Below, piece after piece: positions 36,762-42,897 of a stretch of DNA of 64,000 bases (its first letter is position 1; the number at the start of each line of letters is the position of its first letter). The stretch covers positions 1-64,000 of the forward strand of contig JBBRAE010000015.1 of the NCBI GenBank assembly GCA_038207085.1, read 5' to 3'. The translations under genes and the position numbers were made by a program. The notes under the pieces are model-generated. The model worked only from the letters and a program-made list of their open reading frames with translations, did no database searches and was not told the DNA's origin. This DNA comes from Armatimonadota bacterium. GTDB taxonomy: Bacteria > Armatimonadota > UBA5829 > DTLH01.

Positions 36762-38851
36762 TGAGAGTTCCTGTTGAGTGGATAAGTGAATATGTAGACA
36801 TTCAGGCCCCTATTGATGAGCTTGCTGACTTGCTCACGATGGCCGGGCTTGAGGTGGAGGAGATCCAGGCGATCTCACCCGACGACCTTGCACGAAGCGG
36901 CGGAGTTCCCGATAGCCGCGACGCGCGCGTCATGCTGACCAAAGTCACCCCGAACCGAGGCGACTGGCTCTCCATGATCGGCGTCGCCAGGGAGATTGCG
37001 GCCAACACGGGCTGGAAGTTCAAGCTTCCTGAGCCTCAGGTCGAAGGCGCCGGGGCGGACGTGGCGGGCCAGATCAAGATCAGCATCGCCGACCCCGACC
37101 TTTGCAATCGCTACGTCGGCATGGTCATCAGGGGTGTTCAGATCAAGGAGTCCCCGACCTGGCTCAAGAACCGTCTTGTTATGGCCGGTATGCGCCCGAT
37201 CAACAATATTGTCGACATCACAAACTACGTGATGCTTGAGCTTGGGCAGCCGCTCCACGCTTTTGACTACGACCTCGTTCAGGGACATGAGATCATCGTT
37301 CGCCGGGCAAAAGAGGGCGAGAAGATCACCTCGATCGACCAGGCTGAGCGCGAACTTCGTCCTGACACTCTCGTGATCGCCGACGCAGGCCGCGCAGTCG
37401 CGATCGCCGGGGTGATGGGCGGGTTTGAAAGCGAAGTCACTCACACTACGACCAATATTCTTCTTGAATCGGCAAACTTCGACGCGGTTTCCATCAGACG
37501 TACATCAAAAGTCCTTGGGCTTGTGACCGAGTCGAGCTATCGATTCGAGCGAGGCGTGGACCCTGAAATCGCCGCGCTTGCCGCCCCCCGAGCAGCCGAG
37601 CTTATGGCTGAACTCGCCGGTGGAGAGATCGCGTCGGGGATGGTCGACGTTTACCCCGGCAAGAAGGAACCGAAGAAGATCGTTGTGCGCCCAGAGCGCG
37701 TCGACGCGCTCCTTGGCGAGCATATTGACCCAGCTGCCGCCGTAAGCCACCTGATTGCGCTGCAGATTCCTGCAGAGTTCCTGGACGGCAAGATTGTCGC
37801 AACCGCGCCGAGCTTCAGGTCCGATATTGCGATCGAAGTGGATATCATTGAGGAGATCGCCCGCATCCACGGCTATGAGAACATCCTTGAAACGCTGCCT
37901 TCGTTCCCGCTTCAGGGCAAAGACAGCGATGCAGGTCTCTTTGTCGAGGAGCTTCGCCAGGCGATGATGGCCGCTGGCATGCAGGAAGTGCTCACTCACA
38001 GCGTGGTCGACCCGGTGAGTGTCGAGCTCTCAGGCTACGGAGAGAAGATCCTGCCGCTAAAGAACCCGCTTTCTGAAGATGTTTCCCGCATGCGCCCGAT
38101 GCTTGCGCCGAACCTGCTGCAGGTGATCACCCGCAACCAGGCCGTCGGGGCCAAAGACATCAGCATATTTGAGATCGGTAAGGTTTATCGGAGGACGGAC
38201 ACCGGCGGGATATACGAGTATCGATCCGCCGCCGGCGCGATGGTCGGCAGCCAGTGGGCGAGCGCGTGGAGCATCAATCGCGATACCCTTGCAGCGGACT
38301 TTTTCCTCACAAAAGGTGCGCTCATCGGCGCGCTCACCCGAATCGGTGTGAAGAACATCACAGTCGAGCCCGCGGAGCACCCACTGCTTCACCCGACCCG
38401 ATCTGCCCGTGTGCTGGTTGACGGCGAAGAGATCGGAATCCTTGGCGAGGCCTCTCCTGAGGCGCGCGAGAAGCTCGATCTTCGTGGCCGCCCTTGCGTC
38501 TTTGAGTTTGATGTCGAGAAGCTGATGGGCCTTGTCCCTGTGACTGTTGGCTACAAGCAGCTTCCGAGGTTCCCCGCGATTCACAGGCACATAGGCGTCG
38601 TGCTGAAGCGGGACCTGCCCTATGTCGATGTTTTGGGGAACATACGCCAGTCCGGCGGCGAGATTATCGAGGGCGTCGAGCTTCTCGATGTCTACACTGG
38701 CTCCCAGGTCGGCGCAGATGAGAAGAGTTTCACCCTTTCACTTGTTTTCCGCTCACCTGAGCGCACCCTTACCGACGATGAGGTCAATGGCGTCCTCGAA
38801 TCGGTCAAGACCAGACTGGCATCAACCTTCGAAGCCAGCTTCAGGGGATAA
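36761..38851 (+). CDS. pheT: Phenylalanine--tRNA ligase beta subunit (B2 domain absent)
   Basis: TPNRGD, GQPLHAFD, SYRFERG, FDX-ACB C-terminus. Confidence 0.96.
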   Translation: MRVPVEWISEYVDIQAPIDELADLLTMAGLEVEEIQAISPDDLARSGGVPDSRDARVMLTKVTPNRGDWLSMIGVAREIAANTGWKFKLPEPQVEGAGADVAGQIKISIADPDLCNRYVGMVIRGVQIKESPTWLKNRLVMAGMRPINNIVDITNYVMLELGQPLHAFDYDLVQGHEIIVRRAKEGEKITSIDQAERELRPDTLVIADAGRAVAIAGVMGGFESEVTHTTTNILLESANFDAVSIRRTSKVLGLVTESSYRFERGVDPEIAALAAPRAAELMAELAGGEIASGMVDVYPGKKEPKKIVVRPERVDALLGEHIDPAAAVSHLIALQIPAEFLDGKIVATAPSFRSDIAIEVDIIEEIARIHGYENILETLPSFPLQGKDSDAGLFVEELRQAMMAAGMQEVLTHSVVDPVSVELSGYGEKILPLKNPLSEDVSRMRPMLAPNLLQVITRNQAVGAKDISIFEIGKVYRRTDTGGIYEYRSAAGAMVGSQWASAWSINRDTLAADFFLTKGALIGALTRIGVKNITVEPAEHPLLHPTRSARVLVDGEEIGILGEASPEAREKLDLRGRPCVFEFDVEKLMGLVPVTVGYKQLPRFPAIHRHIGVVLKRDLPYVDVLGNIRQSGGEIIEGVELLDVYTGSQVGADEKSFTLSLVFRSPERTLTDDEVNGVLESVKTRLASTFEASFRG

Positions 38852-38938
38852 ACAGACCGGATATAGGAAGTGCCGGCTATAAATCGAAGGACCATACCAG
38901 ACCGCTGTGGAAGGAACTGCGGCGAAAGGAGACAAAAG

Positions 38939-39589
38939 ATGGTTGTGGATAGTCAGGGCTCTGTAGCTGACCTGGAGTCTATAATCTGCCGTCTGCGCGA
39001 CGTGATTTCCGCTCGCGTTATTACCGGGGACACCGGCGATATCGTGGAAATCCACGTGCTAACAGAGGCAACTAGAGCGCCAAAGCAGGTGGTTCGAGAT
39101 ATCGAGTCCGCTGTGATGGCAACACTGGGAATGGAGCTTGACCATAGGAAGGTCAGTGTGGCCCAGGTGGCAGGTAACGGCCACAAGCCTCAGCAGCAAG
39201 GACGCCTGAAGTTCTCCGATGTAAGTATTTCCCTGGACGGAAGCCGGGCCGAGGCAACGGTGCATCTCGGACGTAGTGGCGTCGTTCACACGGGCACAGC
39301 AAGCGGCCTAAGCTCCAGCAACAGTCAGATGAAGCTGGTCGCAACCGCGACACTTCGCGCTGTTGAAGACGCTGGTGCGGCCGATGGCACAATGGTGGTC
39401 GAGGATATGACCACTGGCGTGACCCTTGCCGGCAAGAACATAGTTGTCGTGCTTGTAAACAACGTGACTGACCGTGGGGATGATCTCCTCACTGGGTCGG
39501 CGGTTGTCAAGCAGGATTTATGGAAGGCCGTGGTTAATGCTACTCTAGACGCCATTAACAGGCGAGTTACATTGACAACCGGCGATTGA
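38939..39589 (+). CDS. Conserved hypothetical two-domain cytoplasmic protein
   Basis: EIHVL...PKQVVRDIES...DHRKVSVAQ domain plus alpha/beta C-terminal domain ending ATLDAINRR; AAGGAG before ATG 38939. Confidence 0.8.
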   Translation: MVVDSQGSVADLESIICRLRDVISARVITGDTGDIVEIHVLTEATRAPKQVVRDIESAVMATLGMELDHRKVSVAQVAGNGHKPQQQGRLKFSDVSISLDGSRAEATVHLGRSGVVHTGTASGLSSSNSQMKLVATATLRAVEDAGAADGTMVVEDMTTGVTLAGKNIVVVLVNNVTDRGDDLLTGSAVVKQDLWKAVVNATLDAINRRVTLTTGD

Positions 39590-39602
39590 TCCATGCTCTA
39601 CA

Positions 39603-39628
39603 AGGGGCGGGCGTAAGTGTTCGCCCCT
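39603..39628 (+). terminator. GC-rich hairpin (weak terminator or stabilising stem)
   Basis: AGGGGCGGGCG/TGTTCGCCCCT stem; no clear U-tract. Confidence 0.45.
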
Positions 39629-39632
39629 CATA

Positions 39633-39996
39633 TATAGTCTCAGGATTAGTCGATGATAGATTCGAGCCAATGACGCGAGCGAAATGGTATTGAGCGGTAA
39701 ATATTTCGACCCGAGCGGAGCGGTCTATTCATCCCTGTGAGCGGTACGGGGATAGATTAACGCGAAAGGGGTTGAAAATACAAATGGCACGTCTGTTCAA
39801 GGTTCTGATCGCTCTGGCGACTCTGGCTGCAACCTGCGGCGCAGCGTATAAGTTTTATCCGCCTCCCCCTATCTAGTGCTTAGCTTGTAGTTATGCACTT
39901 GATTGGCCGGAACGCAGGATGTAACCCGGTAAGTTTGAACCAGACTGCCCTCGTCGTTGGCTCTAATCTCTTATCGATACCCCTGAGATCGCTATG
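39633..39996 (+). ncRNA. Putative large structured RNA / structured small mRNA enclosing a peptide ORF
   Basis: Long-range pairing 39650-39675 with 39952-39977 and 39638-39644 with 39982-39988; several internal hairpins. Confidence 0.6.
39784..39876 (+). CDS. Unannotated 30-aa signal-peptide-like precursor MARLFKVLIALATLAATCGAAYKFYPPPPI
   Basis: ATG 39784 to TAG 39876; purine-rich AAAGGGGT upstream; basic n-region, hydrophobic h-region, short polar tail. Confidence 0.7.
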   Translation: MARLFKVLIALATLAATCGAAYKFYPPPPI

Positions 39997-40106
39997 GATA
40001 TCAAGATTCTACGGATGGACGGCATAATAGAATATTGGGACGATGTTTCGTCGGACTGGAGAAAGGCCTTCAACCGCGTTGACTTATAGCGGCTCAGGTG
40101 GATCGT

Positions 40107-41648
40107 ATGGCAAACAATAAGAGTCCTTATGACCTCTACTGCCGAATATCCATAGTGCTTGCGCTGGCTATGGCGTGTGCAGCGTATAGTGCTGTACCTC
40201 CCCGGCCCAACGCCTGGGCTGGAATGCTGGCTTTTCTCTTGCTCGCGATCTGTGCCGAGCTTATGCCTGTCAGCATCAGATCCAACCAGACGGAAATCGT
40301 CATCAGTTCTCCGATTCACTGGGTAGCCATGCTGCTCTACGGCCCGTTTGTGGCGACTGCGGTTGCGGTTACGGCTTATGGGGCGGTCAACGTGACCGCG
40401 TGGCTATCGGGGCGATATTTTCTCAAGCACGGCAGCGACGGAAAGACCGGGATATTTCGAGATATACTCGCGTTTTTGGCCGGATACTGGGGGGGGCGCG
40501 CGGACTACCCCGCGAGGTGGGCCCTCAAGCTGATTTCGGCGAACTGTGCCTCCCACGCGATACTGGCGTGCTCTGCCGCCGCTGTCTATTTGCTCGCCGG
40601 CGGCATCATCGGAGCCCACAACCTGCTTGCCTCCGCATCCACGTGGATGGTGATGCTTCAGGTGATTTTTCCGTTTATGCTCTCCGTCGGCGCGTATTTT
40701 CTTGTTGACGAGTCTCTCTACGTTATAGTAATCATCGTATTCGAGAACAGGCCCGAGGACTTTCGAGACTGGTATAGTTTTGCTCTGCGCTGGAAGATGC
40801 TGTTCGTCGATACTGTGCCGCTTAGCAGGAGGCAGTATCTGTTCCTTCCTCCAATTACGCTCTTGCTTGTGTATTTGTATATACACCTTGGCGTGTGGAG
40901 CGGTTTGGTTATCTTGGGGCCGTTTTTCGCCTTCAGGCTATCTGTGCAGAAGTCTGTAGAACAACAGCAGGTATACTTGGACACGATTGCGGCGCTTGGC
41001 ACGTATATGCAGCATTATCACCCCTACACAAGAGGGCACCTAAAGCGCGTAGCCGATATGTCGGAGAGGCTTGCCCGGGAGCTGCATCTGGCATCTGAGA
41101 CTGTGATTTTGATGCCGTACGCGGGGCTGTTGCACGACATTGGCAAAGTAGGGGTTTCAGAGGAAATCTTGGACAAGGTTGGAAAGCTCACAGATGAAGA
41201 ATGGGCGAGCATCAGGGAGCATCCGGTGAAAGGCGCGGAGATCGTCGCGCATCTCGACTTCCTGAACAGCACCGTAGACTGGATCAAGTATCATCACAAG
41301 TGGGCCGACGGCTCAGGGTACCCTGACGACGGCGCAAAAAACGGCGGCGTGCCCATCGAAGCCGCGATTATCGCCGTTGCCGACGCTTTTGACGCGATGA
41401 CCGACGACCGGGAAATGTCACTGGACTGGACATGCGACTCCTGCGGCTACAAACCCGAGGACGGCGTTCGTCCTGGCGTTTGCCCGAAGTGCAACGCGCC
41501 CAAGCACAGGGTATATCGACAGCCGCTTACGACCGGTGACGCTATAAACGAGCTGCGTAGAGGCGCTGGGTCGCAGTTCAATCCCGAGGTCGTAAAGGCA
41601 TTTCTTACTATGGTGGACAGGGAGGGAATCAGAGTTGGTGGAAGCTAG
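40107..41648 (+). CDS. Polytopic membrane HD-GYP phosphodiesterase with rubredoxin-like insertion
   Basis: Multi-TM N-terminus; YTRGH, LLHDIGK, HH..DGSGYP, VADAFDAMT; CDSC/CPKC insert. Confidence 0.9.
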   Translation: MANNKSPYDLYCRISIVLALAMACAAYSAVPPRPNAWAGMLAFLLLAICAELMPVSIRSNQTEIVISSPIHWVAMLLYGPFVATAVAVTAYGAVNVTAWLSGRYFLKHGSDGKTGIFRDILAFLAGYWGGRADYPARWALKLISANCASHAILACSAAAVYLLAGGIIGAHNLLASASTWMVMLQVIFPFMLSVGAYFLVDESLYVIVIIVFENRPEDFRDWYSFALRWKMLFVDTVPLSRRQYLFLPPITLLLVYLYIHLGVWSGLVILGPFFAFRLSVQKSVEQQQVYLDTIAALGTYMQHYHPYTRGHLKRVADMSERLARELHLASETVILMPYAGLLHDIGKVGVSEEILDKVGKLTDEEWASIREHPVKGAEIVAHLDFLNSTVDWIKYHHKWADGSGYPDDGAKNGGVPIEAAIIAVADAFDAMTDDREMSLDWTCDSCGYKPEDGVRPGVCPKCNAPKHRVYRQPLTTGDAINELRRGAGSQFNPEVVKAFLTMVDREGIRVGGS

Positions 41649-42318
41649 TCCCTGGACCACAGGTGTGATCTTCGCGGTCTCCGTATCCGTCGTGACGACG
41701 GTTGGGAGTTGGTATTACTCTGCCATATACCAGCCGCGCAAGATGGAGCGGTCGTATAAGAGGTCACTTTATACCCTTGCTGCGGCGGTCGAGACCCGGG
41801 ATTCGGGAACGATCGGTCACGCCGAGCGTGTGGCAAACTACGCCGTAGCGGTCGCTGACCTGCTCGGGATCAAGAAACGTGACCGGCTGAGGATCGAATA
41901 CGCGGCGCTCCTGCGGGACATCGGCAAAGTGAACGTCCCCGCGTCGCTTTTGAACAAGAAGACAAAGCTTGAGCCCGAAGAGTGGGAGAAAATCAAGGGG
42001 CACGCAAATGCGGGCGCTGAGATCGTAAGCGCTGTGCCTTTTTTGGCGTTTCTTGGCGACCTGATCCTCCATCACCACGAGTGTTGGGATGGGTCGGGGT
42101 ATCCAGACGGGCTTGTTGGTGATGAGATACCGCTTGGGGCGCGTATTCTCGCTGTAACGACTGATTATGATGCGATCACATCCGACCGTCCATATCACGA
42201 ATCGCGACCAGCAGAGGTTGCGGTAGACGAGATTAGGGCGGGGCGTGGGTCAAAGTATGACCCCGCGGTTGTTGACGCATTTATTAGGGTTCTCGAATCT
42301 CAAGGTATCGGTAACTAA
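41635..42318 (+). CDS. Single-TM HD-GYP domain protein, HD motif altered to RD
   Basis: GHAERV, LLRDIGK, HHHECWDGSGYP, DYDAITSDRPYH. Confidence 0.9.
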   Translation: MVEASPWTTGVIFAVSVSVVTTVGSWYYSAIYQPRKMERSYKRSLYTLAAAVETRDSGTIGHAERVANYAVAVADLLGIKKRDRLRIEYAALLRDIGKVNVPASLLNKKTKLEPEEWEKIKGHANAGAEIVSAVPFLAFLGDLILHHHECWDGSGYPDGLVGDEIPLGARILAVTTDYDAITSDRPYHESRPAEVAVDEIRAGRGSKYDPAVVDAFIRVLESQGIGN

Positions 42319-42897
42319 ATGGCTGAAGCAGCAGCAATACTTTCATTCATAATCGCACTTTTCAGGCGCGGACGCCCTGCGGGGCTTGCAGATCTGTTTG
42401 ACAACGTAAGGCATTTTTGGCTGGTGCTGGTGCCGTTTGTGATGGTTATCGTCATGTCAGTTGGCAACGGACGGGTTTCGCCGGCGGTCTGGCTGCCGCT
42501 CAGCGCCTGGCTGCACGTGATCTACTCGGTGGCGCTCGTTGCGTTTTTCGCCGTGAACCTGAACATCCGGGGTATGTGGTCGCTGCTGCTGGGGCAGGGG
42601 CTGAATATGCTGCCGATCCTAGCCAATGGAGGCAAAATGCCGATCTCCGTATGGGCCGGAAGGGTCGCGGGGATGCCGGAGTTACCAAGTATGATGCTAA
42701 GGCACGTGGCAATGTCATCTTCCAGCCGGTTCAACTGGCTCGGGGACTTTATCCCTATCCCTGTGAAACTGAAGTTTCTGCTGATTGGCGGCGTACTGAG
42801 CCCGGGAGACGTGTTCATTGCGATCGGCCTCTTCGTGTTGATCCAGTGCGCTATGTGCCCTGTGAAAAAGAAGGTCTCCGGAGCCCAGAATGCCTGA
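42319..42897 (+). CDS. DUF5317-family membrane protein
   Basis: GLN....ANGGKMP, WLGDFI, LSPGDVFI motifs recognised from memory as DUF5317. Confidence 0.8.
   Translation: MAEAAAILSFIIALFRRGRPAGLADLFDNVRHFWLVLVPFVMVIVMSVGNGRVSPAVWLPLSAWLHVIYSVALVAFFAVNLNIRGMWSLLLGQGLNMLPILANGGKMPISVWAGRVAGMPELPSMMLRHVAMSSSSRFNWLGDFIPIPVKLKFLLIGGVLSPGDVFIAIGLFVLIQCAMCPVKKKVSGAQNA

Follow-up and report, generated by a model that had tools for sequence, protein, structure and literature searches.

Operons in which a regulator gene comes first and is followed by an RNA with a repeated short motif are established for HutP and TRAP (PMC2425495 and PMC3064811). Here we describe a locus of comparable layout in a 64,000-nucleotide (nt) stretch of an Armatimonadota bacterium (assembly GCA_038207085.1, contig JBBRAE010000015.1, positions 1 to 64,000; hereafter the window). 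It consists of an uncharacterised gene, X, an mRNA leader with repeated copies of the word AGCG, a small open reading frame (ORF) preceded by a Shine-Dalgarno sequence (SD), and a gene for a membrane protein with an HD-GYP domain. Judged by sequence comparison, the leader is a previously undescribed structured mRNA leader, spread across Armatimonadota, and we are nearly certain that it is a functional conserved RNA element. As to its role, the balance tips slightly towards the AGCG array being a multivalent operator on which an RNA-binding protein, probably X, would act to control translation of the small ORF.

In the Bacillus subtilis hut leader, XAG copies are arranged in two clusters and a multimeric, ligand-activated protein remodels the RNA, according to PMC2425495; in the trp leader, an array of 11 (G/U)AG repeats is read by oligomeric, ligand-bound TRAP, according to PMC3064811. 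The present locus resembles hut in the position of the putative regulator gene directly upstream of the RNA and in the several copies of a very short motif; it differs in the motif itself (AGCG, not XAG), in the lack of a HutP family match for X, and in the output, which would be SD sequestration and not a terminator, X being so far a candidate binder. With TRAP targets it shares a multivalent array of a short repeat; however, TRAP repeats are regular and unstructured, whereas here they are irregularly spaced within a covarying scaffold, and X has no TRAP family match either. CsrA recognizes GGA (A(N)GGA) in loops, with one site overlapping the SD. Leaders of the CsrA/Rsm type are similar to ours in the display of the motif in hairpin loops near the SD and in the proposed control of translation initiation, but AGCG flanks the anti-SD, and the candidate regulator is locus-specific, not global.

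The ANTAR target comprises a pair of hairpins in tandem, which overlap a terminator and carry hexaloops with A at position 1 and G at position 4 (PMC3369931). In contrast, our leader has one covarying local hairpin (P3) with a loop of 7-10 nt, and no terminator-like site was found in the leader. An earlier note on this DNA, which had drawn attention to GAGCGG(T) motifs in hairpin loops ahead of a peptide gene, had stated that they match neither CsrA nor ANTAR sites well, and we agree, since the repeated word is AGCG and a single hairpin covaries. The guanidine-II (mini-ykkC) riboswitch has ACGR loops with a self-complementary CG core, repeated in the leader upstream of the SD. Likewise, a short loop motif with a self-complementary dinucleotide core (here the GC of AGCG) is repeated in one leader in our case; the differences are the absence of an Rfam match, loops of 7-10 nt instead of tetraloops, and three to seven copies in most lineages, mostly outside hairpin loops.

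The AGCG array and the fold of the leader

The motifs lie exactly where the earlier note had placed them and on the same strand: GAGCGGT at 39692, 39718 and 39739, GAGCGG at 39713 and GAGCGA at 39677, all on the + strand, between the stop codon of the upstream gene (39589) and the small-ORF ATG (39784). Within the window, GAGCGG is no frequent word (47 matches when both strands are counted, compared with 61.8 +/- 6.7 expected), and four GAGCGG within 60 nt were found in none of 200 first-order Markov simulations of the window, the maximum being three, in 3 of the 200. The looser combination of five AGCGR within 90 nt arose in 7/200 simulations and is weak as a sole count. It is conservation among related sequences, more than motif counts, that decides the case for the motifs being real.

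Homologues were collected in several ways. Of 40 related genomes, 15 had DNA matches to a 311-nt region. Scanning species genomes for an exact pattern yielded 20 loci, whose phylum, where named, was Armatimonadota/Armatimonadetes, and a metagenome scan, anchored only on the 5' helix arm (P1) and the SD block with AGCG not used, yielded 27 loci, 26 of them true elements and one (L051) a coding-region false positive. Forty distinct elements were aligned with MAFFT (alignment A3). A covariance model built from A3 found exactly one copy per genome in 22 of the 36 genomes of the order and matched 9 of 151 genomes in an even sample of the phylum. Alignment A4, with 48 distinct rows, was fitted to the model and therefore leans towards the structure. 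Related genomes are not independent samples, and the readings in distant lineages were made partly by eye.

The motif of the earlier note proved to be conserved in homologues: AGCG copies 3, 4 and 5 are kept in 47-48 of the 48 distinct elements (copy 3 in all of them, copy 4 in 47), and the P3 loop reads nnAGCGnn in 48/48. The invariant non-coding letters of A3 are the AGCG cores and the block CGAAAGGGGTTGA. The order of the core module is anti-SD, tandem AGCG, hairpin with AGCG in its loop, and SD. No known family was recognized by the Rfam scan that had been proposed in the earlier note: with Rfam 15 (cmscan, 38500-41000, E<=10) only a chance long non-coding RNA match appeared, on the other strand (38661-38759); the whole window at the gathering score contained one tRNA and nothing else; and 14 representative related loci had no matches at E<=0.1. 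Literature searches, with subscription journals outside their scope, found no paper on the motif or on protein X.

The proposed structure (coordinates in Table 1) comprises the long-range helices P1 and P1b, the helix P2 between the anti-SD and the SD, and the hairpin P3. In A3, 93.7% of the cells are paired, compared with 28-45% for slid partners, and changes on both sides are seen in 20 of 32 pairs; the respective values for A4 are 92.7%, 26-46%, and 26 of 37 pairs, and in each alignment 0/500 shuffles reach the observed value. P1 is a 13-pair helix in the family, with 10-11 of its pairs changed on both sides and 97-98% of cells paired; its arms were also shown by BLAST as an inverted repeat. 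The five pairs of P1b (88-91% of cells paired) change on both sides at three positions in A3 and at all five in A4. Together, P1 and P1b form a long-range helix enclosing the small ORF of 26-32 codons. P2 (seven pairs, UCAACCC with GGGUUGA in the family, covering the SD) is nearly invariant, with 96-97% of cells paired, and the distant loci L100 (CUCC/GGAG) and L101 (CUUC/GAAG), read by eye, keep the anti-SD:SD pairing in other letters. In many members P2 is extended by P2b, a short helix of the letters after AGCG copy 4 with the letters before CGAAAGG, which the last G of copy 4 enters in many members. P2b scores 10.3 compared with 8.47 +/- 0.30 for shuffles (0/300 reach the value); the window's family has it in another register, and in fixed columns it is 72% paired.

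On the + strand, the helices are rich in G-U and U-G pairs (one P3 position has 18 U-G), and hence the fold belongs to the + strand RNA, not to DNA or to the opposite transcript. The minimum-free-energy fold of the window pairs UUUCGACCC with GGGUUGAAA; taken alone, the window sequence folds unremarkably (z -0.61 and -1.55), which is uninformative as evidence. The long-range helices of the distant loci described below were scored by a contiguous-helix scan, as RNAduplex gave sprawling full-length duplexes and was dropped. Inspected by eye, the invariant GAGCGAAGC / CGAAAG internal loop did not fit the canonical patterns of a K-turn or a GNRA motif, and both readings were set aside.

The earlier note had proposed three consecutive stems, each with AGCGG in its loop. 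Complementary segments do exist for them, but only the third stem (39732-38/39746-52) is conserved, being identical to P3. The segments of the second (CCG/CGG, 39711-23) are present within an invariant block in which no covariation signal is possible, and its CC belongs to P2. The first (39680-85/39703-08) had to be abandoned, with a score of 8.38 compared with 8.17 +/- 0.26 in the permutation control and a 3' arm overlapping the anti-SD. Neither the long-range helix around the small ORF nor the SD/anti-SD helix had been noticed before.

An independent test was provided by distant loci chosen by the X ortholog alone, in genomes without an RNA-model match. Of the 39 genomes with X, 30 had no such match; 29 of these could be read downstream of X, one ending at a contig edge, and 28 were quantified. 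All 28 contain a comparable small ORF ending in W/F-P(P), for example MGKWTSVLLALLSMVLAGGARLAWP and MARFYKIVAAVLGFLLLGGAQTVFWPT. Within at most 140 nt before these ORFs there are 109 AGCG in the sense orientation and 18 CGCT (antisense), with 24.9 expected from shuffles; at least three copies are present in 24 of the 28 loci, and the tandem AGCGRAGCG in 15. The 29th locus, L131, is similar by eye. The distant leaders are unalignable to that of the window, yet their folds again place AGCG in a hairpin loop shortly before the SD, and for the long-range helix flanking the small ORF 0/60 shuffles reach the observed score in 17 of the 28 loci. Across lineages the copy number of AGCG ranges from 1 to 7 with the motif unchanged.

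Small open reading frame, gene X and genomic context

The small-ORF frame is open in 40/40 homologues, with 26-32 codons, an ATG start in 38 of the 40, and TAG (25), TAA (13) or TGA (2) as the stop. The non-consensus fractions at codon positions 1, 2 and 3 are 0.205, 0.101 and 0.426, a coding pattern that marks the small ORF as a real gene. Its product starts with basic residues, continues with about 16 hydrophobic ones and G-A, and ends in aromatic-x-x-aromatic-Pro-Pro-(Pro/Arg/Lys); aromatic-Pro(-Pro) occurs at or near the end in 40/40 sequences and in the 28 distant small ORFs, and W/F-P-P(-P) is at or beside the stop codon in most lineages. Consecutive prolines and the synthetic motif WPPP are known stalling sequences in E. 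coli, as reported in PMC4176338 and PMC11669330. The W/F-P-P(-P) end likens the small ORF to arrest peptides (SecM, MifM, TnaC; WPPP), and stalling is a candidate function; a peptide of 25-38 residues would still be wholly within the ribosome tunnel, and a pulling-force sensor seems unlikely. In some lineages 1-9 nt separate the small-ORF stop from the 3' arm of the long helix, and the start of the next gene is close behind that arm; there, translating the small ORF could unfold the helix, with coupling to the HD-GYP gene. Such coupling is not general, however, because in the window's order, unlike the lineages with a close arm, the arm is about 70 nt from the stop and a -10-like GGCATAAT precedes the HD-GYP gene.

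Gene X could not be assigned to any Pfam or NCBIfam family (E<=0.1 or E<=1), its profile had no matches to PDB sequences at E<=1, and an Atlas search with the N-terminal domain gave no usable match; the whole protein resembles unnamed Atlas clusters only, which hint at relatives in Bacillota and Gemmatimonadota. The AlphaFold 2 model (predicted local distance difference test, pLDDT, of 88) has two domains. The N-terminal domain is alpha-beta-beta-alpha-beta, a common fold with best Z of 7-8.6, to unrelated proteins. The C-terminal domain is modelled as (beta-beta-beta-alpha)x2 and appears to resemble the leucine/isoleucine-binding regulatory domain of LeuA/CimA: comparison with the LiCMS and MtLeuA regulatory domains gave a Foldseek E of 1.4e-5, and VIA Z 9.7 with a root-mean-square deviation of 3.2 over 109 residues. 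The LeuA_dimer family (PF08502) has no Pfam match in the X of the window, while one homologue cluster has a precomputed PF08502. A predicted complex of two X copies scored 0.41 against a mark of 0.42, which counts neither way on dimerisation.

A homologous C-terminal domain ends a CBS-CBS-GGDEF protein of 442 amino acids (aa) encoded in the same genome (G000:C38:2456-3784; L149:457-1785), with 28% identity to that of X (E 7e-11). Weak X-like matches in ORFs of 182-508 aa are present in most genomes of the order, some of them without X. Those in ORFs of about 450 aa were taken for LeuA, wrongly, as the case in the own genome is the CBS-CBS-GGDEF protein.

The distribution of X follows that of the RNA. 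A strong X match was found in exactly the same 22 of the 36 order genomes as the RNA and in none of the other 14, which have a weak match at most (the weak match of the own genome is the GGDEF paralogue). In the sampled phylum, profile searches detected X orthologs in 39 of 151 genomes. X precedes the RNA in 26/26 loci matching the RNA model, pheT precedes X in 25 of these, and a membrane HD-GYP gene is located downstream in 25, the exception being a contig edge; among 23 X loci (L109-L131, which include two model-positive ones), an HD-GYP homologue also lies downstream in 21, and the remaining two stop at contig edges. The distance from the X stop to P1 has a median of 13 nt and is at most 25 nt in 31 of 43 loci, which leaves no promoter space, so that the leader is most likely co-transcribed with X. 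Moreover, in family f20 (L122, L123, L127, L128) the tandem AGCGAAGCG lies within the last X codons (Ser-Glu-Ala), so the array starts within the X mRNA.

A candidate operator and rival explanations

We propose that the AGCG array would serve as an operator for a dedicated, probably oligomeric RNA-binding protein. Such an operator would be expected to show a word kept amid change, varying copy numbers, display in the loops of a scaffold containing the SD, and linkage to one gene; moreover, a copy number of 1-7 with a constant motif is what an array of protein sites, and not a single ligand pocket, would typically show. The multivalent protein site suggested by the earlier note has become the best-supported reading, given the conserved word, its varying and unpaired copies and the X linkage, and still has the rank of a candidate. 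Taken by itself, a protein-binding array is rather probable. The best candidate for the binder would be X, whose gene is directly upstream and probably co-transcribed and whose C-terminal domain is of a ligand-binding type; for this particular assignment our confidence falls just short of the midpoint. Binding would set whether the SD stays locked in P2. Clamping, i.e. repression, is favoured because most AGCG copies are accessible in the closed fold; opening would be equally mechanistic, as copy 4 overlaps P2b and so could also be used in this way. Translation of the small ORF would be controlled, and possibly also that of the seven-transmembrane (7TM) HD-GYP gene where the helix abuts the next gene.

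Several observations weigh against this proposal. No recognised RNA-binding domain was found in X by family and profile searches, the protein is mildly acidic (median isoelectric point 6.0), and the C-terminal domain shared with the GGDEF protein would suit a module for ligand binding or dimerisation better than one for RNA binding. Within the alignment, no P2 pair changed on both sides. In family f29, four of the five leaders have a single AGCG. The AGCGRAGCG...AGCG pattern is not enriched elsewhere in the own genome (19 matches, compared with 41 for the reversed control), and so there is no sign of a wider regulon. Co-occurrence of adjacent genes in related genomes is not independent evidence, and two natural variants separate X from the RNA. 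In G018 (L097, 1500-1885) X is intact, while the AGCG array, P2 and P3 are deleted, the small ORF lacks its hydrophobic part, and tandem units of about 18 nt stand in place of the 3' arm. In G035:C5:1382968-1383603 (L076) X has one TGA and two TAG while the RNA is intact, the adjacent element having the top score of all; this genome is 60% complete, and the stops could be due to an assembly error or a pseudogene.

The main rival is a riboswitch-like or otherwise self-organising tertiary RNA, in which the AGCG copies would pair with each other via their GC cores or line a ligand pocket, and a ligand would stabilise the SD-sequestering P2. The most conserved nucleotides are indeed located in the junctions and in the internal and apical loops of a covarying scaffold that contains the SD, which is the usual anatomy of translational OFF riboswitches; X lacks an RNA-binding signature; and the neighbouring genes belong to the turnover of cyclic di-GMP (c-di-GMP), which would be a plausible ligand. 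Nevertheless, no Rfam riboswitch is matched, the c-di-GMP and guanidine classes included, the copies vary in number (1 to 7) and arrangement, the tandem lying on the 5' side of the anti-SD in some cases and on the 3' side in others, the remaining leader is unalignable, a change that a single pocket would not tolerate, and the strict linkage to X is left unexplained, for which reasons we regard a riboswitch as unlikely. Still less probable is the recognition of AGCG by another factor acting on RNA, such as a small RNA with CGCU seeds, an endoribonuclease or processing activity for which P1 would be an excision stem of the RNase III type, or a general RNA-binding protein. An enclosing long-range helix is the architecture of processing stems and resembles the one around this unit, and the strand bias of AGCG (109 sense, 18 antisense) as well as the absence of RNA-binding hallmarks in X would also be compatible with such a reader. 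On the other hand, no conserved CGCU partner was seen in the element when the alignments were inspected by eye, and a general factor would account neither for the co-occurrence with X nor for a pattern that is unenriched elsewhere in the genome.

The hok and aapA1 mRNAs are kept untranslated by a 5'-3' long-distance interaction together with SD sequestration. These hallmarks of type I toxin mRNAs are present here, in the form of a peptide of 26-32 aa with a hydrophobic helix, a long-range helix from the leader to the region past the ORF, and an SD paired with an upstream anti-SD; the element could accordingly be read as an mRNA of the type I toxin-antitoxin kind, in which a small hydrophobic membrane peptide is silenced. 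We consider this very improbable: one copy per genome at a fixed place, between X and the 7TM HD-GYP gene, is found across the phylum, indicating vertical inheritance and not the patchy multicopy pattern of toxin loci, the aromatic-Pro-Pro end is conserved, no antisense gene is evident, and the AGCG array would have no explanation. Direct-repeat DNA operators for a transcription factor, the other option of the earlier note, have hardly any probability left. The copies are direct repeats on one strand near a gene start, as such operators would be, but the G-U and U-G pairs of P1 and P3 would turn into A-C mismatches in the opposite strand or a cruciform, the spacing between copies differs by several nucleotides between homologues, the array begins at most 25 nt from the X stop in 31/43 loci, without promoter space, and no sigma-70-like promoter was found at 39300-40300, none in the window having passed the consensus scan.

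If the protein-bound operator is correct, the novelty would lie in an RNA family absent from Rfam with 48 distinct aligned members, in the recognition word AGCG, and in a candidate class of RNA-binding regulators, in a phylum of which few members are in culture and for which hardly any post-transcriptional regulation is known. A helix that wraps the whole small ORF, together with a proline-ended peptide, would be a compact model of leader-peptide translation combined with a protein-bound operator. Regardless of whether X is the binder, the covarying motif is fit to be submitted as a new RNA family. A bolder version, which we hold to be doubtful as a whole, is that X founds a new family of signal-responsive RNA-binding regulators with an AGCG operator and closes a full c-di-GMP loop: its C-terminal domain, which it shares with a CBS-GGDEF diguanylate cyclase, would be the sensor of a metabolite or a second messenger (the obvious guess is c-di-GMP), and its N-terminal domain would read AGCG. 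X and the array would then gate the proline-terminated leader peptide and, via the long-range helix, the 7TM HD-GYP phosphodiesterase, resulting in post-transcriptional feedback on c-di-GMP turnover with a logic similar to that of HutP and TRAP in unrelated proteins. The ties of this locus to HD-GYP and GGDEF proteins would make a post-transcriptional branch of c-di-GMP signalling accessible to testing.

Feature coordinates and adjacent sequences

Table 1. Features of the X, leader and HD-GYP region (positions in the window)
Feature	Position	Strand	Remarks
Gene X, uncharacterised 216-aa protein	38939..39589	+	candidate trans-acting partner, directly upstream of the RNA
P1 5' arm (GAGCCAAUGACG)	39664..39675	+	partner 39952-39963
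AGCG copy 1 (GAGCGA)	39677..39682	+	internal loop between P1 and P1b; AGCG kept in 39/48 distinct homologues
P1b 5' arm (GGUA; consensus GGCAG)	39686..39689	+	partner 39946-39949
AGCG copy 2 (GAGCGGU)	39692..39698	+	P1b-P2 junction, before the anti-SD; AGCG kept in 45/48
Anti-SD UCGACCC, P2 5' arm	39706..39712	+	partner GGGUUGA 39769-39775
Tandem AGCG copies 3 and 4 (GAGCGGAGCGGU)	39713..39724	+	directly 3' of the anti-SD; most conserved block
Hairpin P3 (UCCCUGU / ACGGGGA)	39732..39752	+	arms 39732-39738 / 39746-39752; 7/7 pairs changed on both sides
AGCG copy 5 (GAGCGGU)	39739..39745	+	apical loop of P3; AGCG kept in 48/48
GAAAGGGGUUGA, small-ORF SD and P2 3' arm (39769-39775)	39764..39775	+	invariant in 40/40 aligned sequences
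Small ORF, 30 codons (MARLFKVLIALATLAATCGAAYKFYPPPPI)	39784..39876	+	basic N-terminus, hydrophobic stretch, aromatic-Pro-Pro end
3' arms of P1b (39946-39949) and P1 (39952-39963)	39946..39963	+	close the fold about 70 nt past the small-ORF stop
GGCAUAAU, -10-like box	40021..40028	+	between the RNA element and the HD-GYP gene
Multi-pass membrane HD-GYP protein	40107..41648	+	Pfam HD_5 2.3e-28; HHKWADGSGYP in translation

Right past the X stop, at 39604-39629, the window contains a GC-rich hairpin (GGGGCG...CGCCCC) with no T-run, found in this genome only; in most relatives P1 begins 4-25 nt past the X stop. The pattern scan of the own genome also returned three near-identical stretches of about 44 nt, from AGCGAAGCGTC to TGAGCG (C5:135365-135408, C6:127275-127318 and C14:41588-41630), which may be parts of a repeated gene or element.

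Most loci of the order (L077-L096, by eye) share a G(G/C)CATAAT-like word in the interval that separates the RNA element from the HD-GYP gene; it sometimes follows a GC-rich hairpin and may be a -10 box. In the same interval of L089 (G004), about 300-420 nt into the segment, tandem repeats of the GAGGTTA/GGTAAGA type and an inverted copy are located. The HD-GYP protein encoded at 40107-41648 has a membrane N-terminal half and a Cys-rich insert. A second HD-GYP gene (41635-42318) follows in tandem with a 14-nt overlap, and then a gene for a DUF5317 membrane protein (42319-42897).

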